A DNA stretch of 30,960 nucleotides from an uncultured Desulfobacteraceae bacterium (GCA_964620335.1 CAZUHR010000001.1:1-30960), one strand, 5' to 3'; positions 494-19,994 are shown, numbered from the stretch's first letter. Made by a program: numbers and translations. Notes: generated by a model from the letters alone, not told the origin.

Positions 494-1186
494 CTACGTG
501 TGCCGGTTTTTTGCATGATCAGGGTTGATTGAGTTCTTCCTATGCCGGGAAATCTTTCCTTCAATCATATAGATTACATCTTCTGCGATGTTGGTGGCGT
601 GGTCCGCTATTCGTTCGAGGTGCCTGGAGATTAAAAAGAGATTGATCAAGTATCCAGTATTGTCAGGTTCGCGATTAATAGCCTCTTTTATTTTATCATA
701 AATGCTGTGATGTATTTCATCCACTTCGTCATCCAGCAAACATATTTTGTATGCAAGATCAACATCAAGGTTCACAATTGCATCAAGGCTGCCCTTGAGC
801 ATGGCTTCGGTTTTTTCAGCCATAATAGTGAAATCAAACGGGACTTTTACAGGAGGACGCTTTGAAATATTCTCAACACGTTCTGCAATGTTTACGGCCT
901 CATCACCAATACGCTCAAGATCATTGTTGATCTTGATAATAGCACTGATGAATCGCAAGTCCACGGCAACAGGCTGGTACAAGGCCAGGATCTTCAGGCA
1001 TTCCTCTTCCATCTCTACCTCAAGCGCATCAACTTCACGGTCAGCAGCTATAATTTTTTTTGCCAGATCTCCATCCCTTTTCTCATGAGCTTCAATAGCC
1101 ATTCTCACCCGTTCCTCTACCATAGCGCCCAGTGAAAGTATCTTTTTTTTCAGTTTATCTATCTCTCTCTGCAAATGCCATTTCAT
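494..1186 (-). CDS. phoU: Phosphate signalling complex protein PhoU
   Basis: Two PhoU repeats (DREVDALE...DLERIGDEAVNIAE; DDEVD...LERIADHATNIAEDVIY); directly downstream of pstB. Confidence 0.97.
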   Translation of the reverse strand: MKWHLQREIDKLKKKILSLGAMVEERVRMAIEAHEKRDGDLAKKIIAADREVDALEVEMEEECLKILALYQPVAVDLRFISAIIKINNDLERIGDEAVNIAERVENISKRPPVKVPFDFTIMAEKTEAMLKGSLDAIVNLDVDLAYKICLLDDEVDEIHHSIYDKIKEAINREPDNTGYLINLFLISRHLERIADHATNIAEDVIYMIEGKISRHRKNSINPDHAKNRHT

Positions 1187-1214
1187 AATTCATCCCTCAC
1201 TGTGGGTATTGATT

Positions 1215-1985
1215 TTAACCGAAACGTCCGGTGATATAATCGGATGTCTGGGTAAATTTGGGGCGAGTAAAAATCGTCTCGGCCTTATCTGTCTCAATGA
1301 GCTTGCCCAGGTAAAAAAAGCCTGTGATGTCTGAAACTCGCGCCGCTTGCTGCATGTTATGCGTTACAATAATAATAGTATAGGTCTTTTTCAATTGATG
1401 GATTAGTTCTTCGATCTTTTGAGTGGCTATAGGATCGAGAGCCGAGCAAGGCTCATCCATCAGTAGGATTTCAGGTTCCACAGCCATCGCCCGGGCGATA
1501 CAGAGGCGCTGCTGCTGCCCTCCTGACAGGCCAAGGGCTGAATCGTGAAGCCTGTCCTTCACTTCTTCCCAAAGGGCGGCCTGCCGTAGGGTCTTTTCAA
1601 CCCGTTCCGAAATAAAGGCCTTATCATTGATGCCGTTGACGCGCAATCCGTATGCCACATTTTCAAAGACAGTCTTGGGAAAGGGGTTTGGTTTTTGAAA
1701 TACCATGCCTACACGACGTCGAAGAGCAACCACATCAACATTGGGGTCATATATGTCATGACCATCCAAAATAATATTACCCTCCACGCGAATATTTGGG
1801 ATCAGATCATTCATACGGTTCAGGCACCGCAGCAATGTGCTTTTTCCACATCCCGATGGACCGATAAGGGCCGTCACCTGATTTTCATAAAAATCAAGGG
1901 AGATATCAATCAAGGCATGAAAATCACCATAATAGAAATCCAAATCCTTTGCTGTCATCTTTATTAAATCATCCATCCTATACAA
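1215..1985 (-). CDS. pstB: Phosphate ABC transporter ATP-binding protein
   Basis: Walker [32 protein letters not shown] signature, [25 protein letters not shown]. Confidence 0.98.
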
Positions 1986-1989
1986 CCTT

Positions 1990-2949
1990 TTAATGCATTT
2001 TCCTTCTTAGATGAGCCCTGTAGATTATAGCAATAAGGTTCAGTCCTAAAACAAGAACAATCAGCACAAGGGCTGTTCCATATTGGAGGTGCCGTGTTGC
2101 TTCTATCTCCGTTCCTGCTGTTGCAAGGACGTAAATGTGATACGGAAGCGCCATAATCTCATCGAAAATGGAAGACGGCATTGCGGGCGTAAAGAAGACT
2201 GCGGCAGTAAACATTATGGGAGCGGTTTCTCCTGCTGCCCGACTAATGCCCAGAATAGCACCGGTAAGAATACCTGGCAGGGCAGTCGGCAAGACCACCT
2301 TGTAAATCGTTTGCCACCTGGTCGCTCCAAGGCCGAGGGATGCTTCGCGGTATGTGTCTGGAACACCTCTGAGAGCCTCTTCGGAGGCTCCGATAATCAC
2401 AGGTAAGGTCATTGCGCCAAGGGTCAGCGCCCCGGATAAAATGCTAACCCCAAACTGTAGCCAGACAACGAAAAAGGCAAGACCAAACAGGCCGAAGACT
2501 ATGGAGGGAACCCCTGCGAGGTTATTGATCCCAAGACGAATGATCCGCAAAATCCGTCCTGGCTTTGCATATTCATTAAGATATATGGCAGATGCAACTC
2601 CTATAGGAAGGGCAACCAGAATGGCACCCAGGCTGAGGCATAGGGTCCCAACAATGCAGGGAAAGATACCGCCTTTTGTCATGGAGTCCATGGGCGGCTG
2701 TGTCAGAAATGTCCAGTTAATGGCCCGCCATCCCCTTACAACGAGAAAATAGATAATAATAAGCAGTGCAATGCCATTAATTGCTGCGGAGAGTCTGAAA
2801 AGAAAAAACATAAACCGCTGAAAAATTTTACGCCGACTCAGGAGACCTGGCTTTGCCTGTGAGACAGCTGTTTTTTCCCCCTGAACCTTCTCCGATTTAG
2901 GGAAAAGCCCGGAATTAAGACCCATATAAGATGTATTTGATTCGTTCAT
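1990..2949 (-). CDS. pstA: Phosphate ABC transporter permease PstA
   Basis: [30 protein letters not shown] loop, [10 protein letters not shown]; operon context. Confidence 0.96.
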
Positions 2950-2975
2950 AACGCAGTCCGCATTCCTATTGATCC

Positions 2976-3887
2976 TCAGAGGGTTGCTGCTCCTACCTGC
3001 CTGTATTTGTGCGCAATGTGATCTGCTATCATGTTAAATAACAGGGTAAAGGCAAATAGGACGATACCCGTTGCAAAGAGCGCATAATAATGGTCTCCCC
3101 GAAAAGGGGCCTCTGCCATTTCTGCAGCTATACTGGCAGGCATTGGCCTTACCGGATCAAATAGCGAAGAAGGTAACATTGTCGCGCCACCGGCCACCAT
3201 AAGTACGACCATGGTCTCCCCGATAGCCCTTGACATTCCCAAAATAGTAGCCGTTGAGATGCCGGAAATGGATGCGGGAATAATGACTCGCCATATGGTT
3301 TCCCAGTGGGTTGCACCCAGAGCGAGAGAGGCCTCTTTGAGCTCTGTGGGCACATTAAAGATGGCATCCTCAGAGATGCTGCAAATAGTTGGTATGGACA
3401 TGAAAGCCAACATCAACGAAGCATTAAAAAGATTCAGTCCTGTAGGTATGTCAAGAATCTCTTGAAGGAATGGCGCCACAATCACCATGCCGAAGAATCC
3501 GATAACCACGGAAGGAAGTGCCGCCAGAAGCTCTACAACCGGTTTAACCAATTCCCTAAGCCTATAAGATGCAACCTCTGCGAGATAGAGGGCGGTCAAT
3601 ACTCCCAGAGGAATAGAAATAACAGAAGCCACGGCGGTCACTGATAGGGATGCTATGATCAGCGGGAAAATGCCGAAATCAGGAGGATCATCTGTGGGGT
3701 ACCAGAATTGGCCAAAGATAAAATCCTTAAAAGAAACTTTGCCGAAGATTGGAAGACCTTCTACAAAAAGAAAGAGAACAATCAGCGTGAGGGTTGTTAT
3801 GGAAGCCAGTGCGACACAGAAAAAAAAGATGCGGATAGCCTTTTCTTTTCTCTGACGCCCCTTTCCTCCTTGATGGCTCTTTATCAT
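2976..3887 (-). CDS. pstC: Phosphate ABC transporter permease PstC
   Basis: ELLAALPSVVIGFFG, KEASLALGATHWETI, SRAIGETMVVLMVAG; operon context. Confidence 0.96.
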   Translation of the reverse strand: MIKSHQGGKGRQRKEKAIRIFFFCVALASITTLTLIVLFLFVEGLPIFGKVSFKDFIFGQFWYPTDDPPDFGIFPLIIASLSVTAVASVISIPLGVLTALYLAEVASYRLRELVKPVVELLAALPSVVIGFFGMVIVAPFLQEILDIPTGLNLFNASLMLAFMSIPTICSISEDAIFNVPTELKEASLALGATHWETIWRVIIPASISGISTATILGMSRAIGETMVVLMVAGGATMLPSSLFDPVRPMPASIAAEMAEAPFRGDHYYALFATGIVLFAFTLLFNMIADHIAHKYRQVGAATL

Positions 3888-4047: not shown

Positions 4048-4866
4048 TTAGTATAGGGGCACATACCCTGCATCTGCCACATATTTTTGACCCTTTTTGG
4101 GATGCAAAACAAAAGTGATAAACTTAACTGTATCTCCCTTTGGCCAGCCGGCTGTAAACATATACAGAGGTCTGCTTATCGGGTATGTCCCGTTCAGGGT
4201 TGTCTCTTCTGATCCCACGATCTTGTCTACCGACAAGGCCTTCACGCATGAATCGAGATATCCAATGCCTATGTAACCAATAGCATTCTTATTTTTCGAA
4301 ACAACCTGCACAACGGCCCCGTTTGAAGCCTGAAGGAGTGCGCCGGGATAGACCCTTTCTTTTTTCATCACCTTCTCGTGCCAGACTTCATAGGTTCCGG
4401 ACGAGGTATCCCTTGAGACAACAACGATTTCCCTGTCAGGTCCTCCTACATCTTTCCAGTTTTTGATTTCTCCCTTATACATAGCCTTAAGCTGGTCCAT
4501 GTTGAGGTTTAATGCAAAATTGCTGGGATGCACTACCGGCACTATACTGTCGTATGCCACGGCAAACGGCACCGGATATCTTCCATTTTCCACGGCCAGC
4601 TTTACTTCCTTTTGCTTGATAAATCGGGAGCTGTCTGCGATATCAGTCGAACCATCAATTAGTGCCTTAATACCATTACCCGAGCCGCCACCCGAAATGG
4701 ATATCTTCACATCAGGATGTTCTTTCATGTATACTTCCGCCACTTTCTGTGCAATTGGAAGAACCGTAGTGGAACCCTTGATAACAATATTTCCTGCCAA
4801 AACTAAATTTGTCGAAAAACCAACCATTACCGCCATAATCATTATCACAAAAATCTTTTTCTTCAT
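4048..4866 (-). CDS. pstS: Phosphate ABC transporter substrate-binding protein PstS
   Basis: Signal peptide; KGSTTVLP, GGGSGNGIKAL, SRDTSSGTYE, YPISRPLYM phosphate-binding-protein motifs. Confidence 0.97.
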   Translation of the reverse strand: MKKKIFVIMIMAVMVGFSTNLVLAGNIVIKGSTTVLPIAQKVAEVYMKEHPDVKISISGGGSGNGIKALIDGSTDIADSSRFIKQKEVKLAVENGRYPVPFAVAYDSIVPVVHPSNFALNLNMDQLKAMYKGEIKNWKDVGGPDREIVVVSRDTSSGTYEVWHEKVMKKERVYPGALLQASNGAVVQVVSKNKNAIGYIGIGYLDSCVKALSVDKIVGSEETTLNGTYPISRPLYMFTAGWPKGDTVKFITFVLHPKKGQKYVADAGYVPLY

Positions 4867-4980
4867 TACTGAATACTCCTCCTGTTTCTCAAAAATAATT
4901 ATTGATTCAAATGGTTACTGTTTTGCCACAATCAATCTCCTAGCGAACAATTAAAACCAGGCAAAAATTAATCCTGAATT

Positions 4981-5020
4981 GTTAGCGATTTATTAGAGAT
5001 AGATTAGAATTGAATGAGAA
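4981..5020 (-). promoter_or_regulatory. Pho-box-like array of four direct repeats with 11-bp period upstream of pstS
   Basis: Minus strand reads TTCTCAT-tcaa-TTCTAAT-ctat-CTCTAAT-aaat-CGCTAAC: 7-mer plus 4-bp spacer, like the E. coli CTGTCAT Pho box. Confidence 0.65.
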
Positions 5021-5048
5021 ATGAAATCTTTTGCTCTTCCGATAAAAA

Positions 5049-5187
5049 GGCAGGTAAATTGTAAAGACACTTCCTTGACCTGGCGTGCTCTCAACCGATA
5101 CCCGGCCTCTGTGTGCCTGGACAATATACTTGACAATGGCAGGGCCCGGACCTGTGCCGCCTAATTTGCGGCTTCTCGCCTTGTCCA
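5049..5187 (-). pseudogene. Degenerate second copy of the phoR 3' end (HATPase G2 box to C-terminus)
   Basis: 139 bp aligning without gaps to 7701-7839 (15 mismatches by hand count). Encodes [46 protein letters not shown], with GLGL changed to GPGP. No upstream kinase domains. Confidence 0.9.
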
Positions 5188-5420
5188 TTCGGCAGTAAAA
5201 TCACCTAGGCAATCACCATATACTTCGTGAAAATCCTGGTACTTCATTACCTGATCAGCCAAGCTCTTCACATTTGCAATTAAATTTGCAATATGTCAAA
5301 ATACTGATGTTAAATATAATTTCACTCCTCAAAAAAGCGAGGAAACCAGAGGTGTTAGACACAACTAAATTCATTTAAAGTCGTGAAATTTGATTTCTAA
5401 TATAGCTCGGAGGGGAATTT

Positions 5421-6185
5421 ATGGGGTTACGAATAAAAATTTTATCTGGATTTCTGATCTTAACTGCGATGTTATTTATCGCAGGGGTATGGTCAATATA
5501 TGAATTGAGCTCTATAGGAATATCTGTTCAAAGGCTCCTGGATGATAATTATAAAAGCATTAATGCTGCAAAAACCATGATCGAAGCCCTTGAAAGAGAA
5601 GATAGTGCTGTATTGCTGCTCCTTTCCGGTAAATGGGAACAGGGCAGGTCGATAATGGAGTCTGCAGATAGTTTTTTTCAAAAAGGATTCGAAGTCGCAA
5701 AAAATAATATAACGATACCTGGAGAACAAGAGTATGTTAACGATATAGAATCAAATTATAAAACCTACAAGGCTTTGTGGATAAAACCAGTTGTTGGCAC
5801 TAAGAGTGAAGGAAATTTAAGCTGGTATTTTCAAAAAGTACATCGGGCATTTCTTGATGCAAAAATTTCTGTTGAAAAACTTATGACCCTTAATGACGAA
5901 ACCATGTATCGGACGGCATCAGATTTGAAAAATAGGGCGCATAGAGCAATAATGCCAGGAATTGTGGCCATTTTATCCGCACTCATTTTCACCGTAATTT
6001 TCAACTATCTTATCAATTATTATATGGTAAGCCCTATAATCAAAATAACAGAAGGGATTCAGAAGTTTATAAAAGGCAGGGAACCATTTGATGTTAAAGT
6101 TGAAACTCAAGATGAATTGTATCACCTAGTCTCTGCAATTCAAGAATTGTGTGCACGGTCACGATCTTCTGAGGCAGCAGAATGA
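5421..6185 (+). CDS. Membrane sensor-like protein: TM, periplasmic four-helix bundle, TM, HAMP; no output domain
   Basis: N-terminal TM (ILSGFLILTAMLFIAGVWSI), helical periplasmic region, second TM, HAMP-like SPIIKITEGIQKFIKG...DELYHLVSAIQEL; RBS ggagg upstream; ATGA overlap with trkH. Confidence 0.75.
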   Translation: MGLRIKILSGFLILTAMLFIAGVWSIYELSSIGISVQRLLDDNYKSINAAKTMIEALEREDSAVLLLLSGKWEQGRSIMESADSFFQKGFEVAKNNITIPGEQEYVNDIESNYKTYKALWIKPVVGTKSEGNLSWYFQKVHRAFLDAKISVEKLMTLNDETMYRTASDLKNRAHRAIMPGIVAILSALIFTVIFNYLINYYMVSPIIKITEGIQKFIKGREPFDVKVETQDELYHLVSAIQELCARSRSSEAAE

Positions 6186-7621
6186 GACTTCATATTATTC
6201 TCAGATATGCCGCATTTGTTCTACTGTTCAATGCAATTTTTTTTCTTATCTCTGCCGCTATTTCTACGCTCAATGCAGATTCTGCGTTTTTCCCTCTTCT
6301 TTATAGTGCCATAATCTCTGCTCTTTTTGGGATCTTCCCCCTAATTTTTGTTCCCTCGACCACGAAAATCACTAATAAAGAAGGGTTTATTATAGTAGTA
6401 TTCGGCTGGCTTTTATCATGTCTGGTTGGCGCCATTCCATATGTTCTCTATGGTGGAGAATTTACATTTACAAATGCCTGGTTTGAAAGTGTATCAGGCT
6501 TCACCACTACCGGCTCATCCATCCTTAGAAATATAGAGAATCTCCCCCTAGGATTGTTATTCTGGCGATCGGTAACTCACTGGATCGGTGGTGTGGGTAT
6601 TATCATATTTGTACTCTCGGTCTTGCCATCTATGGGATCGGCTGGAATGATTTTATATCGAACCGAAATGTCTCATCTTGCTATGGACAATTTCCATTAC
6701 CGAACGCGGAAGACCTTGCAAATATTAATAGTCATATATGTCGGTCTAACATTAGCTGAAACAATTTCACTGCTACTTTGTGGAATGAATTTGTTTGATT
6801 CTGTTACACACTCTTTTGCAACCATAGCTACCGGAGGTTTTTCACCTAAGAACTTGAGTATTGCTTATTATAAAAGCGCTTATGTCGAGCTCGTAATCAT
6901 GATTTTCATGGTCCTCTCAGGGATACACTTCGGCATTCTGTTTGCTTGCATTGCCGGAAATTTTGATGGTATCTGGAAATCATCAATTGTAAGGTATTAT
7001 ATTTTAGCGCTTATAACAGGGATTATAATAACAACGCTCAATCTTCATGGAAATCAATTTCAGAGCTGGACAGAAGCTTTACGCTACGCCGCATTTCAGA
7101 TCATTTCCGTGGGAACTTCAACTGGGTTTGCCACTACAAACACATCCCTATGGCCATCATTTTCACAATTAGTAATTATATTTTTCACTTTGCAATGCGC
7201 ATGTGCAGGTTCTACCTCTGGAGGTATCAAAGTTGATAGAATAGTAATTTTCTGGAAATCTATTACGAAAAGGATTAGGCAAATACAACATCCCAATGCG
7301 GTAATTATAATGAAAGTCAATAAAATGCCGGTCGATAATGACGTGGTTGAAATGGGCATTGTATATATTTGTCTTTATCTCGGTATTGTCTTTATTTCCA
7401 CCCTCTTACTAACCGCTCTGGGTGTAGACGGCCTTTCCGCCTTTTCGGGATCTGCTACCACCATGGGGAATGTAGGTCCGGGCTTTGGAATGGTTGGTTC
7501 CATGAGCAATTTCAGTCAAATTCCGTGTATTGGAAAATGGATTCTAACTGCCGATATGCTCCTTGGACGACTTGAAATATTCGGCTTGATTATATTTTTT
7601 CTGTCAAAATCATGGAAATAA
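6182..7621 (+). CDS. trkH: Trk-type potassium uptake membrane protein TrkH
   Basis: Four pore-loop motifs: FESVSGFTTTGSS, ATIATGGFS, SVGTSTGF, TMGNVGPGFG; also GSTSGGIKVDR and MLLGRLEI. Confidence 0.95.
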   Translation: MRLHIILRYAAFVLLFNAIFFLISAAISTLNADSAFFPLLYSAIISALFGIFPLIFVPSTTKITNKEGFIIVVFGWLLSCLVGAIPYVLYGGEFTFTNAWFESVSGFTTTGSSILRNIENLPLGLLFWRSVTHWIGGVGIIIFVLSVLPSMGSAGMILYRTEMSHLAMDNFHYRTRKTLQILIVIYVGLTLAETISLLLCGMNLFDSVTHSFATIATGGFSPKNLSIAYYKSAYVELVIMIFMVLSGIHFGILFACIAGNFDGIWKSSIVRYYILALITGIIITTLNLHGNQFQSWTEALRYAAFQIISVGTSTGFATTNTSLWPSFSQLVIIFFTLQCACAGSTSGGIKVDRIVIFWKSITKRIRQIQHPNAVIIMKVNKMPVDNDVVEMGIVYICLYLGIVFISTLLLTALGVDGLSAFSGSATTMGNVGPGFGMVGSMSNFSQIPCIGKWILTADMLLGRLEIFGLIIFFLSKSWK

Positions 7622-7690
7622 CTGCCAAGCGTTATTTACAATCCGGCTTAAAGATAAAGGCCGCTCAGAGCAAATTCTGATTATCACAAC

Positions 7691-9466
7691 CTAATCTTTT
7701 GGCAGGTAAATTGTAAAGACGCTTCCCTCCCCCGGCGTGCTATCAACCGAGACCCGGCCCCTGTGCGCTTGGACAATATGTTTGACAATGGCAAGGCCCA
7801 GACCTGTTCCGCCTAATTTGCGGCTTCTCGCCTTGTCCACACGGTAAAAGCGCTCAAAAAGGCGAGAAAGGTGCTCTTTGTCTATACCGCAGCCCTGGTC
7901 GCGGACAGAGATAATGGTTTCATCATCTGTCTGTTCAGCCTTTATCTGGATAGCACTGCCGTCGTTACTGTATTTGATGGCATTATCCAGGAGATTTACC
8001 ACGGCCTGTTCAAGGAGTGGGTGATTAATTTCTGCCACAATGTCTTCATTGCCCGACAATTCAAGATTGATCCGTTTGGAAGCAGCTTTCACCTCACAGA
8101 GCTGGATCGCAGTCTGGAGTACATCCTTAACACGACCCACAGCAAGTCCGACTTCTTCTTTTTCAGCCTTTTCCTCAATTCTGGAAAGACTCAGAAGATC
8201 TTCAATAATAGTATTAAGCCGATTCACATGCTTCATTATAATTGCCAGGAACCGCTCTGTATCCTTGGGATCCTTTATCGAGCCTGCACGAAGGGTTTCC
8301 ACAAATCCACTAATTGCCGTAATAGGTGTCTTTATTTCATGGGAGACGTTGGCGACGAATTCGCGACGGATATTTTCAAGTTTGCGGAGGCGTGTCACAT
8401 CATTTAATACAATGAGTGCGCCGATATGATTACCCTCAGCGTCATGGAGGACCGTACCATGCCCATTCAAAATCCTTTGTCCATCAGAGCGTAGTGCAAT
8501 ATCTCCTTCGAAGGCATTCTGGCTTGATAATGCGTTTGCTACAAATCGCAGTAAAGCGGTATTTCTTGCCACCTCCTGAATACTCCGGCCCTGTGCCTCA
8601 GAAGGACTGGTTTTTAACATTTGTGCAGCGGCATTATTCATGTTGATTATACGCTCATCCATATCTACGGCAATAACCCCTTCAACCATACTTGAAAGAA
8701 CGGCTTTAAACTCGTTACGCTGCTTCACGACCGCCTTTATCCGGTCATCAAGCTGGGCCGCCATCTGGTTCATCGCTTCTGCGAGACCCTTCATCTCTTC
8801 GGAATCGGGAACCGAAAGCCTGTATTCCAGGTCACCACGTGCAAAATGCTCTGAACCCTGTCTCATCTCCTCTAATGGACGACTGATCCGGCGAGAGATC
8901 AGCAGGCAGAGAATCGCGGCAAATAGCGATATGATCAGGCCTCCAACAGCGATCTTGATCTGAATGTCCTTTAAAGCATTATCAATTGCAGTGACTGGTA
9001 TGGATGTGCGGATAATAGCAATCGTTTGTGCGCCTTTTCTGGCTGGTATCGCCGTATACATCATGTTCTTTTCAAGGGTCCGGCTGTACCTTGTTGACAT
9101 TCCTAAGCGTCCGGTTAAGGCCTGTAAAATCTCAGGGCGGTCCGCATGACTATCCATACCAGCAGGAACGCCTTCGGAATCACCGATGACTTTGCCTGAA
9201 GGCAGTATCACTGTAATGCGAGTGGAGGAGCGTATGCCTATGTTTTTGCACAATTGATCAATATGGTCTATATCAGGAGGATCAAGGTGTTCCAGTATTT
9301 GTTGTTCAAAAAGAAGGGCCCTTGCTTCGAGACCTGCCGCGGTTTGTTCAAGAAAGAAATGTCTCAAGGATTTCGATGCATACCATGTGACGGCTACAAG
9401 AGATACGATTATGATCAGCAGATAGGAAGGATAGAGTTGCCAGAGCAACCGTTTTTTTCTTGCCAT
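7691..9466 (-). CDS. phoR: Phosphate regulon sensor histidine kinase (TM, periplasmic domain, HAMP, PAS, HisKA, HATPase)
   Basis: H-box [17 protein letters not shown]-box [11 protein letters not shown]1 [20 protein letters not shown]2 [12 protein letters not shown]; 3 bp downstream of phoB. Confidence 0.93.
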
Positions 9467-9469
9467 GCG

Positions 9470-10156
9470 CTACTCCCTGAAACGATATCCTATACCTCTT
9501 ACCGTTTCAATATACCTGCTGGCAGGTCCCAGTTTTTTCCTGAGACCAACGATCTGAACATCCACCGCCCGATCAGTGACAAAGTAATCATCACCTCGCA
9601 CCGCATCCACAATTTGCGAGCGCGTAAACACCCATCCCGGTCTCCTTGCCAAATAACCCAGGATACCAAACTCCGTAAAGGTCAACTCAACGGGTTTACC
9701 CTCAACGAGCACCTCATGACGGCCGGGATGTATTACAAGATCATGAATTTTAAGAACCGATGACTCCTCTGCTGTTTCTTTTACCTTTCTGCGCAAAACC
9801 GCTCTTACCCTCGCAACCAAAATCCTTGGACTGAAAGGCTTGGTGATATAATCATCGGCTCCAAGTTCCAGGCCTGTGACGATATCCGCTTCTTCCCCCT
9901 TGGCTGTCAACATTATGATGGGAATGTCTCTGGTCCTGGAATCATTTCTAATTATCTTTGTGACTTCCAAGCCGTCTATTCCCGGAAGCATAAGATCCAG
10001 AACTATGAGGTCCGGAAGTTCGGATGAGGCCAACCTCCAAGCCTCTTCACCACTTGCGGCACCCATAACACTATACCCCTCTCTTGATAAGTTGAACCTC
10101 ACCAATTCAAGGATATCTTCTTCATCTTCTACAACAAGTATACGTTCCTTTGTCAT
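9470..10156 (-). CDS. phoB: OmpR/PhoB-family response regulator of the phosphate regulon
   Basis: Receiver (VVEDE, VLDLMLPG, MLTAK, DDYITKPF) plus winged helix (LTFTEF, RAVDVQIVGLRKKL, IETVRGIGYRF); paired with phoR near pst. Confidence 0.92.
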   Translation of the reverse strand: MTKERILVVEDEEDILELVRFNLSREGYSVMGAASGEEAWRLASSELPDLIVLDLMLPGIDGLEVTKIIRNDSRTRDIPIIMLTAKGEEADIVTGLELGADDYITKPFSPRILVARVRAVLRRKVKETAEESSVLKIHDLVIHPGRHEVLVEGKPVELTFTEFGILGYLARRPGWVFTRSQIVDAVRGDDYFVTDRAVDVQIVGLRKKLGPASRYIETVRGIGYRFRE

Positions 10157-10272: not shown

Positions 10273-10749
10273 TTATCTTCTTACGACCCATCCTGACTTC
10301 ATAATCAGGAAAACAACTGCCATCAGAAGATACAACATCATAAAGCCCAGGTGAGAAATATCTATGAAAAGCGTAAAGCCGGGCGAAAAAACCACATCAG
10401 GCAGATTCTTCAAGACCCTGAAAATTCCGGTTATAATGATACCCCCCAGCATGGCAATTCGCACATAGGCCGAATATGTCAGACTGAATTCCTTTCTGCC
10501 CGAAAGTATGAAATCCATTATGACATAGGACAAAAGGCCCAAGAGAAAAATGGCACCGATGTAATGAATATAGTGAGTCAGATAAAAATCGGCTGACCAT
10601 CCCATCCCAGGAATATCGGATACGTAATAGCGTTTAAATATAGGCATCTGGCCAAATCCGGTAAATGCCATTAAAATGAAGGTCGCTATGTATATCCGGA
10701 ATAGGACTTTCCTGCCTCCTGACAAATTCCGGGTATCAATGGATTTCAT
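10273..10749 (-). CDS. Cytochrome b-like membrane protein (FdnI/b561-like), partner of the adjacent 4Fe-4S protein
   Basis: About four hydrophobic segments with His residues (THYIHY, DISHLG). Likely start MKSIDT at 10749 after a GA-rich RBS; the 10956 start in the ORF track overlaps the upstream gene and an intergenic repeat. Confidence 0.7.
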   Translation of the reverse strand: MKSIDTRNLSGGRKVLFRIYIATFILMAFTGFGQMPIFKRYYVSDIPGMGWSADFYLTHYIHYIGAIFLLGLLSYVIMDFILSGRKEFSLTYSAYVRIAMLGGIIITGIFRVLKNLPDVVFSPGFTLFIDISHLGFMMLYLLMAVVFLIMKSGWVVRR

Positions 10750-10819
10750 TTCCCCTTCCCCTCTGATCCCCCCTTGAATATTAAAGTTATTGCTGACATA
10801 TAAGTCTCGCCTTTCGGTT

Positions 10820-10870
10820 ATTTGAATTTGAACAATTTGAAAATTATTTCGAATTTCGATATTAGGATTC
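10820..10870. repeat. Degenerate ATTTCGA-type heptamer repeat patch
   Basis: atttcga-atttcga at 10846-10859 flanked by atttgaa-like units, in the gap between the FeS and cytochrome b genes. Confidence 0.35.
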
Positions 10871-10879
10871 TGTGCATCT

Positions 10880-11866
10880 CTAATCCCCTTTGTCACTAGA
10901 ACCCCATGGTATTTCACCTTTAGCGGATTTATAAGCTTTGCCCACTGCTGCTGCAATTCCAGCTATCGGCGCAATCATCATCGCCTTTGCCAGATTATCA
11001 GCATGGGCCATGGAATCTTCTACAGGTTTTAGATGCGGCTTCCCGGGACCTTTTTCAATAGCCTTATTCAGTTCCTCGAAAGGCACCGGAGAAACATAGA
11101 TCGTATTCGTTCCGCCGTTCTCCTTTTCACCATAGATATAACCGTTTATTTCTTTCACAATGGCATGGGCCTCTTTGAGAATTTCATCTCTGGGACCAAT
11201 CTTCTGTACATGCTCCGGACATACTTCAATGCAGGCAGGCAACTCTCCCTTTTCGATCCGATTATAGCAGCGGTCGCATTTATACATCACCCCATTTCCG
11301 GCAAATGAAGGCAGAATATCCAAGTACATTCCAACACCGGTCTGTCGCTCGGGAATATGCCAGGGACACACCACCTTACACTTTGAACCCCCGAGGCAGA
11401 CATCCGCATCAATCCGGGTGATCCCATTTTTCAATTTGCGCGCAGCACCCCATGGACATAGATCCGCACATGGAGGATTCTGGCAATGCATGCAGCGACG
11501 GGGAAAGGTAAAGGTCTCTTCCTTACCGTCTATGGTTACAGTAGCTTCCTGGATAAAGAGCCAGTTATAAGGCGTCAATCGATCTGTGACATCCCTCTTA
11601 TCAGACCAATCAGAAACCTTGACTCTGCCCGGATACATTTTAGGAAAGGGTTTTTTGGGTTCAGGAAATTTGTACCCGTTGACTTCACGGCATGCCTCGA
11701 CACACGCCCCACACCCAATGCATTTCCTGACATCAATAAGTGTTGCCAGCTCTTTCTGGTTGCTACCTCTTACAGCAGCAGGAAGCGGAACTGAGGAAGC
11801 GGCTATGACGCCTGCTGCAGCCAGGCCACCTTTGATGAATGATCTTCGCGAGATTTTTCCGGCCAT
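10880..11866 (-). CDS. Tat-exported four-cluster 4Fe-4S protein (DmsB/HybA/NrfC-like) with C-terminal membrane anchor
   Basis: SRRSFIK twin-arginine signal; CIGCGACVEAC, CMHCQNPPCADLCP, CLGGSKCKVVCP, CDRC...PACIEVCP; hydrophobic tail MMIAPIAGIAAAVG. Confidence 0.9.
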   Translation of the reverse strand: MAGKISRRSFIKGGLAAAGVIAASSVPLPAAVRGSNQKELATLIDVRKCIGCGACVEACREVNGYKFPEPKKPFPKMYPGRVKVSDWSDKRDVTDRLTPYNWLFIQEATVTIDGKEETFTFPRRCMHCQNPPCADLCPWGAARKLKNGITRIDADVCLGGSKCKVVCPWHIPERQTGVGMYLDILPSFAGNGVMYKCDRCYNRIEKGELPACIEVCPEHVQKIGPRDEILKEAHAIVKEINGYIYGEKENGGTNTIYVSPVPFEELNKAIEKGPGKPHLKPVEDSMAHADNLAKAMMIAPIAGIAAAVGKAYKSAKGEIPWGSSDKGD

Positions 11867-19674: not shown

Positions 19675-19994
19675 CCGGCTGGATCTCCTAATGATCTTCC
19701 GACAAAGGCGAATCACCGTCGGTATGGCGGGGCATGGCACTCTCTTTTCAAAATGCGCATTCATACTCCTGCCGAAAGAGTCGAACACCCCCATTCCCGC
19801 AAACAACCGGCCTTTGCACATATTAACGACTGTCGCCACGACAAAGAGTCCCTTCAGGGGCTGTCCAATATAGAAATCCGAGGCCTCATTAACATTCCAT
19901 AAAACGTCATCCTATGCGGCTTTCGAAAAGAGACCACCATGCCCCTTTAATAGGGCGACGGAAGGGACTCTTCGAAGGGACGCATATTTCCACA

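Follow-up and report, generated by a model that had tools for sequence, protein, structure and literature searches.

Why does the phosphate (pho) locus of an uncultured salt-marsh Desulfobacteraceae bacterium hold two different 3' ends of its sensor gene phoR, one on either side of a cargo of two genes? The split locus lies in a 31-kb stretch of DNA (30,960 nucleotides, hereafter the window), and a sequence-only reading had offered an answer: that two phoR alleles diverged as working genes and were then joined by recombination between two pho loci, with neither an integrase nor an insertion sequence (IS) involved.

The window holds all the members expected of a Pho regulon cluster, phoBR together with pstSCAB-phoU, as identified with Pfam and NCBIfam models (Table 1). 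The phoR product scores 404.5 bits against the NCBIfam PnpS model, for which the cut-off is 400. The phosphate ABC transporter operon (494-3887, minus strand) is resident and syntenic with that of four relatives, in which phoB-phoR-pstSCAB-phoU is contiguous (L030, L014/15, L017/18 and L019). L030 is a Desulfobacteraceae metagenome-assembled genome about 92-93% identical to the flanks of the window. In these uninterrupted loci phoR encodes 590 residues, ending in YLPL or YLPH before the stop codon. In all four the end of phoR, the spacer and the start of pstS run colinear with the phoR fragment beyond the cargo in the window (the stub) and its adjoining spacer, and the stub is therefore the resident's original 3' end, still fused to the pstS promoter as the earlier reading held. 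The spacer is also conserved among them and includes a conserved direct-repeat motif at 5002-5028 (TTCATTTCTCA and TTCAATTCTAA, minus strand), which we regard as a putative Pho box.

Table 1. Features of the split pho locus, in window coordinates
Feature	Position	Strand	Assignment or remark
phoU	494-1186	minus	Pfam PhoU
pstB	1215-1985	minus	Pfam ABC_tran
pstA	1990-2949	minus	Pfam BPD_transp_1
pstC	2976-3887	minus	Pfam BPD_transp_1
pstS, phosphate-binding protein	4048-4866	minus	Pfam PBP_like_2; NCBIfam PstS family, 276 bits
Resident phoR-pstS spacer with pstS promoter region	4867-5048	minus	
Stub R, displaced original phoR 3' end, pseudogene fragment	5049-5192	minus	G2 box GPGP
Junction zone between stub and conserved cargo	5193-5264		
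Cargo 5' non-coding region	5265-5420	plus	
Cargo gene 1, 254-residue membrane protein with two transmembrane segments	5421-6185	plus	4HB_MCP-like
Cargo gene 2, TrkH-family cation (K+) transporter, 479 residues	6182-7621	plus	
Block recently exchanged between lineages A and B	5265-8350		dS compared with flanks
Spacer and new phoR tail	7622-7700		69 nt between convergent trkH and phoR stops
phoR, PhoR/PnpS-type histidine kinase, 591 residues	7691-9466	minus	HAMP-PAS-HisKA-HATPase_c
R', working copy of the phoR 3' end	7701-7844	minus	G2 box GLGL, intact
phoB, OmpR-type response regulator	9470-10156	minus	Pfam Response_reg and Trans_reg_C

The two ends align without gaps over 139 nt (5049-5187 and 7701-7839), with 15 mismatches (89.2% identity), the number obtained previously by hand. 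A repeat search lengthens the pair to 144 nt at 88% identity, with the copies 2652 nt apart, and no other repeat in the window comes near it in size; the BLAST E-value of 2e-45 rules out a chance match. The two are in frame with phoR, they share an identical run of 31 nt (5157-5187 and 7809-7839), and their similarity ends precisely where phoR alleles naturally cease to align. Codon by codon we recover exactly the ten synonymous differences and five replacements counted before: two leucine-to-proline changes that turn GLGL into GPGP in the G2 box, His to Tyr, Asp/Glu and Glu/Gln. By the Nei-Gojobori method this amounts to 10 synonymous differences over 34.5 sites and five nonsynonymous over 100.5, giving a dS of 0.366 and a dN of 0.05.

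The stub sits in an open reading frame of 68 codons (4982-5188) and matches just the last 46 positions of the HATPase_c profile. The stop codon of its original YLPL terminus is mutated in the window (TAG to TAT) and intact in a second lineage, designated B (L006, L007 and L051-L060), the window representing lineage A. Nine changes are private to the stub, six of them replacements, and all nine fall in the 65 nt nearest the cargo (5123-5187; P = 0.001). The distal 74 nt carry no private change in haplotypes A1, A2 or B and still resemble a functional allele. The stub is a mosaic, and in L056 and L058 a distal patch with six synonymous changes and one Val-to-Ile replacement lies beside an unchanged, decayed proximal half.

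R' carries the derived or unique states GCG, GGGGAG and AGC, of which GGGGAG (Gly-Glu) recurs in L014, L019 and L020 and the other two are confined to R'; all stubs have GGTCAA and AGT, as do L030 and L017. The R' tail, LPKD before the stop, is of the same type as the LPKE tail of P0006 and P0008. Over the 139 nt, R' differs from the stub at 15 positions and from L017 at 11, while the stub differs from L017 at 12 and from the L008 stub at eight. The two copies are therefore not each other's closest relatives, although the placing of R' outside the group formed by the stub, L030 and L017 rests on three to five characters and the tail, since these are alleles of only 139 nt with star-like distances (9-16 differences). 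Their dS of 0.37 equals that of orthologous pstS, pstC and the 5' part of phoR between lineages A and B (0.35-0.38) and exceeds that between the window and L030 (0.20-0.26). That the copies diverged as working alleles before being joined is supported by these comparisons; the argument first made for it, the bias toward synonymous change, is weak on its own, as the window gives a probability of 0.02-0.10 for at least ten synonymous differences among 15 when one copy is neutral and the other functional.

The cargo between the copies occupies 2.5 kb and comprises two genes and no recombinase. It is compositionally foreign: the inter-copy block has a GC content of 0.38, and GC3 is 0.31 in the first gene and 0.36 in trkH, against 0.485 +/- 0.038 for 20 other genes of the window. 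From hydropathy and profiles, the first gene encodes a periplasmic four-helix-bundle (4HB_MCP-like) domain and a C-terminal HAMP-like segment, with no output domain; its Pfam 4HB_MCP_1 match (E = 8e-6) is just under the cut-off, and NCBIfam matches to the HAMP regions of methyl-accepting chemotaxis proteins and histidine kinases are weak. The start of the second gene overlaps the stop of the first (ATGA). Its product has the character of a Trk/Ktr membrane subunit (TrkH/KtrB), matching the TrkH models of Pfam (E = 2e-53) and NCBIfam (E = 6e-91), with the NCBIfam equivalog and subfamily models matched at scores under their cut-offs. A Pfam scan of the window gave no RCK subunit (TrkA/KtrA); the conserved partner of this trkH is instead the 4HB/HAMP membrane protein, and the pair is conserved in L021-L029 and L061-L063. 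The nearest homologues outside the locus show merely 77-79% amino-acid identity and lie in unrelated contexts, where the pair is an ordinary chromosomal module.

Upstream of the first gene a promoter-like site (ATGTCA-16-TATAAT, 5293-5320) is predicted, in a non-coding region with zero or one difference in 156 nt between haplotypes. The adjacent junction zone differs by 5-6.5% between insertion-bearing haplotypes and has a homologue in none of the loci compared. At the non-homologous junction any microhomology is weak, the sequence at 5188-5200 resembling that natively upstream of the stub only at the level of CCG and TTTTAC. On the far side the spacer contains no predicted terminator-like site, has no homologue found elsewhere and supplies the last codons of phoR, encoding Lys, Asp and the stop (7691-7699).

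Comparison of lineages A and B shows that the block is common to diverged lineages. It consists of the cargo, R' and about 650 bp of phoR (7691-8350), so that the shared segment runs 500 bp past R'. Between the lineages dS is 0.019 in the sensor gene, 0.039 in trkH and 0.076 in the 3' part of phoR, compared with 0.35-0.38 in the flanks, and a near-identical block amid such flanks must have moved by homologous recombination. The proposal of recombination between two pho loci is upheld in this respect, the loci being alleles from different lineages of one species complex and not paralogues. Coalescence is deeper in the junction zone and proximal stub (8-10%) and shallower in the cargo (dS 0.02-0.04), the change being abrupt near 5265, and an additional, later sweep of the cargo is needed to account for this. 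The population recombines often; patches of 300-400 bp are 100% identical between the window and L030.

We consider it probable that a foreign cassette was gained by recombination between allelic phoR ends, of the single-crossover or homology-facilitated illegitimate recombination (HFIR) type, and was then spread by homologous recombination. The starting locus would have been phoB-phoR-pstSCAB-phoU, with a phoR-pstS spacer of about 175 bp. Between phoR and pstS a low-GC cassette of 2.5 kb would have entered, with its own promoter, the 4HB/HAMP gene and the TrkH-family gene; its entry and later moves would have relied on host recombination and no dedicated recombinase. The incoming DNA would have brought R', with its LPKD tail, from another lineage of the same species complex, and R' would have come in at the very step that gave rise to the duplication. 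A single crossover within phoR homology would fuse the resident phoR body to the incoming end, and the other incoming end would be joined, without homology, where the resident's final 139 bp begin. The product would have the form of a Campbell-type single crossover of a circularized fragment or of HFIR, one or other of which we infer as the most likely origin of the duplication. PhoR would be left intact and the pstS promoter would keep its upstream context, with the resident 3' end reduced to a non-functional stub. The filled allele would then have spread over backgrounds about 10% diverged by ordinary homologous recombination, with phoR as one arm and the stub, spacer and pstS as the other, crossovers falling inside the stub. 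A donor lineage, with the cargo beside an LPKD-type phoR and no stub, was not found among the matches listed.

It is rather unlikely that the duplication arose in situ, by a break-repair insertion in one lineage that duplicated 139 bp of the target and left initially identical copies; examples would be the filling-in of nicks staggered far apart, or a tandem duplication into which the cassette was then inserted. The present differences would then reflect decay of the stub and later homologous overwriting of R', the distal stub or both. The proximal 65 nt of R' are indeed identical to the inferred ancestral stub save for stub-private decay, as an in-situ duplication predicts. Recombination patches are common and the R'-bearing block was itself exchanged between lineages; with recombination so frequent, R' could have been overwritten after such an event and need not be the original copy, and the weakness of the synonymous-bias test also leaves room for this. 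An in-situ origin nevertheless demands two coincidences. Firstly, the edge of the duplication would have to fall exactly at the last conserved codons (Leu-Pro), two to three codons before the stop. Secondly, read-through into the cargo would have to give Lys-Asp-stop, like the natural LPKE tail of related phoR genes. Matching copies occur in no sampled lineage and, counting further against it, we know of no bacterial mechanism that yields a 139-bp target duplication without homology.

We also doubt strongly that the cassette and R' constitute an integrase-free, homology-armed mobile unit, docking at phoR through host RecA by means of a spare, slightly recoded 3' end of a conserved gene, its position perhaps selected. 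If they did, the unit would achieve through recombination what phages achieve when they bring along a substitute gene end. Selection might, for example, favour a location between the Pho-regulated operons if this tied sensor-gated K+ transport to the physiology of phosphate or polyphosphate, and the sweep centred on the sensor gene and its promoter would reflect that selection.

It appears very unlikely that the insert is the remnant, or a satellite, of an element that integrates site-specifically at the phoR 3' end and brings a replacement end, its integrase being lost or acting in trans. The arrangement does recall that of icd-e14-icdC, in which the insert provides the working end, the displaced C-terminal part persists as a pseudogene and most differences are synonymous (PMC13626634), and the two copies share the identical 31-nt run. 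However, a Pfam scan of the large open reading frames disclosed no integrase or transposase, and neither an excisionase nor any phage gene, in the 2.5-kb insert or across the 31 kb, so that the supposition of a locus free of integrase and IS stands, and no match was obtained to plasmids, phages or IMG/VR. The continuation of A-B identity into phoR fits homologous and not site-specific exchange, neither limited to an att core nor fixed at its boundaries, R' falls inside the range of alleles known from the host species complex, and the cargo pair is at home in other chromosomes. Two further classes were rejected. A transposon or IS insertion does not accord with the lack of a transposase and of terminal inverted repeats, none of which were found, or with a duplication of 139 bp rather than a short one. 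A diversity-generating retroelement is excluded by the absence of a reverse transcriptase, by differences at all four bases, where such elements confine mismatches to template adenines, and by haplotypes that are stable across 11 contigs.

That the insertion is ancestral to the whole clade, and was deleted from the empty relatives when R' recombined with the stub, is highly improbable. Deletion can occur between direct repeats of 139 bp, and enough of the distal stub is preserved for a functional phoR to be restored from it, but all four sampled empty-site lineages have the L-stop or H-stop tail and native spacer, the cargo composition is unameliorated, cargo diversity is very shallow (dS 0.02-0.04 against 0.2-0.38 in the flanks) and a stub as old as the clade would show far more decay than nine private changes.

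The structure itself is real. One-piece contigs pass through pstS, the stub, the cargo and phoR in L006 and six more (L051-L055 and L058); L056, L057, L059 and L060 stop inside phoR. These lineage B contigs (L006, L051-L060) come from different JGI samples, and each lineage A junction occurs in independent contigs, the left one in L004 and L008 and the right one in L001 and L002. A two-strain assembly chimera joined at a shared phoR k-mer, the artefact that might have undone the earlier reading, has practically no chance of being correct: the repeat does interrupt short-read unitigs (Logan contig L003 has its ends at 5158 and 7830) and two haplotypes co-occur in some samples, but the same junctions recur in Logan unitigs and in more than 15 contigs that are independent and stem from different samples.

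The locus is best compared with known routes of acquisition. When circular DNA integrated in E. coli by a single crossover, 56/60 recombinants carried 109-950 bp of the homology in duplicate (PMC3240628), and HFIR has been described by de Vries & Wackernagel (2002), Prudhomme et al. (2002) and Meier & Wackernagel (2003), as cited in PMC5361080. As in those events, one short homologous anchor would have carried in foreign, non-homologous DNA with no dedicated recombinase, and the anchor is duplicated as direct repeats flanking the insert, here of 139-144 nt. The target is empty in close relatives (L030, L014, L017 and L019), and the anchors are different, non-sister alleles (dS 0.37; KD-stop against L-stop). 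The laboratory events used defined substrates, whereas ours is inferred from natural genomes, has anchor alleles with a dS of 0.37 and has a product that has since spread between lineages.

The e14/phage 21-icd system of E. coli likewise has an insert inside the 3' end of a conserved gene, with the working end beside the insert, a displaced C-terminal fragment (icdC) at the far side and differences that are mainly synonymous with a few conservative replacements (PMC13626634). Yet e14, a prophage of 15 kb, encodes an integrase, recombines site-specifically at att and excises on SOS induction, whereas the present insert is 2.5 kb with two housekeeping-type genes, no recombinase and exchange tracts that run into flanking homology. 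At Rhs, CDI and T6SS effector loci the conserved upstream portion of a gene serves as anchor for an incoming module, which takes the place of the 3' part and moves the old 3' end downstream as an orphan; for these orphan ends and immunity genes, displaced sequentially, HFIR is the proposed mechanism (PMC5361080). The 3' ends exchanged there are highly divergent toxin domains under diversifying selection, whereas here a conserved catalytic domain with nearly all differences synonymous is involved and the cargo is unrelated to the function of the gene.

Flexible genomic islets are accessory cassettes that always occupy one place in the chromosome but are carried by only some of a set of close lineages; they move by homologous recombination in the conserved core genes beside them and usually lack a duplicated gene end. 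Our cassette shares the fixed site, the presence or absence among close lineages and the movement through conserved flanks, and differs in that one homology arm is partly a pseudogene stub, in which crossovers are recorded. It is a gene gain of the ordinary, integrase-free kind that is unusually well documented.

The phoR gene of the window ends in a sequence, R', which recurs as a displaced stub beside the pst genes. The two copies form a direct repeat that aligns without gaps and is mismatched at 15 of 139 nucleotides; ten of the differences are synonymous and five replace residues, including those that convert GLGL to GPGP. A repeat search stretches the pair to 144 nt at 88% and identifies it as the sole large repeat in the window. 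The 2.5 kb block between the copies, which carries a sensor gene and trkH (the cargo), has a GC content of 0.38, and the GC3 values of the two genes are 0.31 and 0.36; 20 further genes of the window give 0.485 ± 0.038. Every detail of the locus set out in an earlier sequence-only reading was borne out.

Features of the pho locus and of neighbouring parts of the window
Feature	Position	Strand	Description
Stub ORF	4982-5188	-	68 codons; matches the HATPase_c tail only; just upstream of pstS-pstC-pstA-pstB-phoU
Candidate Pho box	5002-5028	-	tandem motif TTCATTTCTCA / TTCAATTCTAA
Stub copy of the repeat	5049-5187	-	displaced phoR 3' end
Junction zone	5188-5264		77 nt
Sensor gene (cargo gene 1)	5421-6185	+	254 aa; two TM segments, 4HB_MCP-like periplasmic domain, HAMP-like tail
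trkH (cargo gene 2)	6182-7621	+	TrkH-family transporter, 479 aa; start codon overlaps stop of the sensor gene
trkH-phoR interval	7622-7690		69 nt separating the stop codons
phoR	7691-9466	-	PhoR/PnpS-type histidine kinase, 591 aa, intact; R' forms its end
R' copy of the repeat	7701-7839	-	working phoR 3' end
phoB	9470-10156	-	adjoins phoR
ORF upstream of phoB	10273-10956		227 aa; no Pfam match; overlaps the start region of the Fer4 gene
Inverted repeat	19729-19760 / 19914-19945		32 nt, 81% complementary, arms 153 nt apart; intergenic, downstream of an Smr-domain gene

The genes trkH and phoR are convergent, and the interval separating them has no predicted terminator-like hairpin; transcriptional read-through of one into the other is possible. 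The true start of the ORF upstream of phoB is probably further downstream, since relatives call a gene of 158 aa there.

A chimera of two strains, raised as a concern by the sequence-only reading, is ruled out by the occurrence of the junctions in more than 15 independent contigs and in Logan unitigs. The same junctions were found, using exact-protein look-ups and BLAST, in many independent assemblies from salt-marsh and related sediment metagenomes. Single contigs span pstS, stub, sensor gene, trkH and phoR (L006, L051-L055 and L058); others run from pstS through the stub to the sensor gene (L004 and L008) or hold the trkH end with phoR and phoB (L001 and L002), and four terminate within phoR (L056, L057, L059 and L060). 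Logan unitigs from four runs follow an identical path that breaks solely at repeated k-mers. In run X1 the cargo depth is about 8, against about 14 for the two flank haplotypes summed, which hints that empty sites co-occur with filled ones.

PhoR homologues place the window in the uncultured Desulfobacteraceae/Desulfobacterales. Relatives with 86-93% PhoR identity (L030, L014/15, L017/18 and L019) carry phoB-phoR-pstSCAB-phoU uninterrupted, the contiguous arrangement for which the sequence-only reading had suggested looking, and they keep the upstream synteny of the window (DsrE, Fer4). L030 is a GTDB-species MAG, about 92-93% identical to the window in DNA. In these empty-site relatives phoR encodes 590 aa ending in YLPL* or YLPH*, and its last 139 bp, the stop codon and the 175 bp spacer to the pstS start align base for base with window positions 5187 to 4867. 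The YLPL* TAG is still present in the stubs of lineage B (L006, L007 and L051-L060), which also has a filled site; the window represents lineage A. This alignment and the surviving stop codon show that the stub is the resident's original phoR 3' end, still joined to its own pstS promoter. The C-terminus of R', LPKD*, is of the tail type seen in the related PhoR proteins P0006 and P0008 (LPKE*).

Within 4982-5048 of lineage A the stop codon of the stub has changed from TAG to TAT, together with a TCT to TTT change, and the frame stays open for 21 further codons, reaching the pstS promoter region. The resulting 68-aa stub ORF may be listed as a gene by gene callers; annotators should treat it as a pseudogene fragment and not as a small histidine-kinase-like gene. 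The tandem motif, situated some 20 nt past the native stop codon of phoR, is conserved in all relatives and may be a PhoB-binding (Pho) box for pstS. The spacer between phoR and pstS varies in at least three ways, since in phoR lineages with the LPKE* tail (L020, 6564-7623, and the P0006 contig) it is about 1 kb long and contains an ORF of 75-85 aa. L020 was considered as a second stub-bearing locus and rejected; there is no repeat there.

Pairwise distances place R', the stubs and the native alleles (L030, L014, L017) in a star-like pattern, with 9-16 differences. The window stub is no nearer to R' (15 differences) than to L017 (12) or L030 (14), and the two copies are not sisters; a sister relationship would have told against the sequence-only reading. 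GGTCAA and AGT are common to all stubs, L030 and L017; R' has GGGGAG (encoding Gly-Glu, as L014, L019 and L020 do) and, unique to it, GCG and AGC. The Nei-Gojobori dS between R' and the stub is 0.366 (dN 0.05), equal to that between the window and lineage B (pstS 0.38, pstC 0.37, 5' part of phoR 0.35) and higher than that between the window and L030 (0.20-0.26). Filled sites occur as three haplotypes: A1 (the window), A2 (L008 with Logan X2/X4 unitigs) and B. States present in any stub and absent from all seven functional alleles number nine, six replacement and three synonymous, when three states in a patch of L056/L058 are left out. All nine fall within the 65 nt nearest the cargo (P = 0.001); the remaining, distal 74 nt holds no private state in A1, A2 or B and resembles a functional allele. 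The stub's own decay is small. Because of this, and because the R'-stub dS is at the inter-lineage level, most of the synonymous divergence arose while both copies were parts of working genes, as the sequence-only reading had proposed. Its argument from synonymous bias is borderline for the window alone, where the probability of at least 10 synonymous changes in 15 is 0.02-0.10 according to the transition bias assumed. We dropped the argument that no shared stub changes against six R' changes proves R' foreign, because R' has a recent common ancestor across the two lineages, so that its branch covers the whole time. Sliding identity against L014, L017, L019, L020 and L030 gave no clear breakpoint of a foreign 3' segment in the window phoR.

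Comparison of the lineages shows recombination between different pho loci directly. The flanks of the window and lineage B are 83-91% identical (dS 0.35-0.38), whereas 5265-8350 is 96-100% identical (dS: sensor gene 0.019, trkH 0.039, 3' part of phoR 0.076). Since the shared tract continues 500 bp past R' into phoR, the movement of this block fits homologous rather than site-specific exchange. Patches of 300-400 bp in pstC and pstA (3324-3624 and 2424-2724) are 100% identical between the window and L030 against a background divergence of about 8%, and look like recent recombination. Recombination is generally frequent in the population. The phoR sensor-domain region (8400-10156) is mosaic within lineage B, at 91-95% identity to the window in L053-L055 and 85-88% in L006, L051, L052 and L058; phoB is also mosaic amongst these contigs, and that of L052 is 100% identical to the window phoB. 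The L056/L058 patch, six synonymous changes and V>I in the distal stub attached to an unchanged decayed proximal half, shows crossovers inside the stub itself.

The junction zone and proximal stub differ by 8-10% amongst A1, A2 and B, and the adjoining cargo non-coding region by 0-1 in 156 nt. Between L008 and the window, 13 differences crowd into 5054-5240, a clustering that raised the idea of a diversity-generating retroelement or ongoing stub hypermutation; both are ruled out, as there is no reverse transcriptase and the changes are not adenine-specific. The stub variants sort into three distinct haplotypes that stay constant from sample to sample; in 11 contigs of lineage B nothing varies apart from the recombinant patch. 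In Logan run X2 two stub/zone haplotypes (5054-5264) occur together between identical flanks. On the simplest reading the insertion would have spread earlier, the distal stub would be refreshed from empty-site alleles, and a later sweep, with the sensor gene and promoter at its centre, would have homogenised the cargo.

We favour, with moderate confidence, a model in which R' and the cassette would have been imported from the pho locus of another lineage. The structure would have arisen through a single homologous crossover within phoR plus one non-homologous join, and the filled allele would then have spread via ordinary recombination. The original donor was not found amongst the loci examined. 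The main rival, a 139 bp target duplication made in situ and later overwritten by recombination, accounts for the identical proximal halves, but its boundary would have to coincide exactly with the last conserved codons, and the read-through would have to mimic a natural K-[DE]-stop tail; we regard it as unlikely. A transposon or IS is ruled out by the lack of a transposase and of inverted repeats (none terminal to the cargo was found) and by the 139 bp length of the duplication, and phage or plasmid carriage by the lack of cargo similarity to plasmid, phage and IMG/VR collections. The large ORFs across 31 kb include no integrase, transposase, reverse transcriptase or phage gene. The sequence-only interpretation, with recombination between two different pho loci, a stub fused to the pstS promoter and no integrase or IS, is supported overall.

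In other genomes the two cargo genes form an ordinary chromosomal module (46-79% amino-acid identity) with varied neighbours (MgtE, PAP2, FtsH, TauE, NfeD, Usp), and no kinase gene or second pho locus lies beside trkH in L021-L029 or L061-L063. DNA similarity to these relatives is limited to 5400-7629, and homology searches with the junction sequences 5188-5420 and 7610-7705 found no homologues. In many Desulfobacterota contigs the gene for the 254-aa protein, which has no output domain, is invariably paired with that for the 479-aa TrkH, the stop codon of the one overlapping the start codon of the other, and no TrkA/KtrA RCK gene occurs near the pair. The protein may serve the transporter as a sensor-type partner, as yet undescribed; a full-text search found no literature on the pairing.

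The locus is a clean natural record of gene gain inside a tightly organized regulon, without mobile-element machinery and with neither neighbour damaged. The stub is a fossil that separates the resident from the incoming allele and logs later crossovers. For an uncultured population of salt-marsh Desulfobacteraceae, a single locus thus reveals how insertion, spread and sweep were timed relative to one another. Such a record is of use in population genomics, for studies of gene-specific sweeps and of gene flow driven by recombination. The mechanism is not new: this is a natural instance of genes being gained through recombination, without an integrase, and of a gene end being displaced in the process, and its value is mainly as a well resolved population-genomic example.

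Single-crossover integration via a short homologous anchor yields the anchor as a direct repeat on either side of the insert, the same structure as here, and in E. coli 56 of 60 single-crossover recombinants had duplications of 109-950 bp (PMC3240628). A related product would result from homology-facilitated illegitimate recombination, the mechanism put forward for the orphaned 3' gene ends at T6SS and Rhs loci (PMC5361080). In architecture the nearest parallel is e14 in icd, where the working gene end likewise stands beside the insert with the displaced icdC beyond it, and the differences between icd and icdC are mostly synonymous (PMC13626634). Unlike the phoR cassette, e14 has an integrase.
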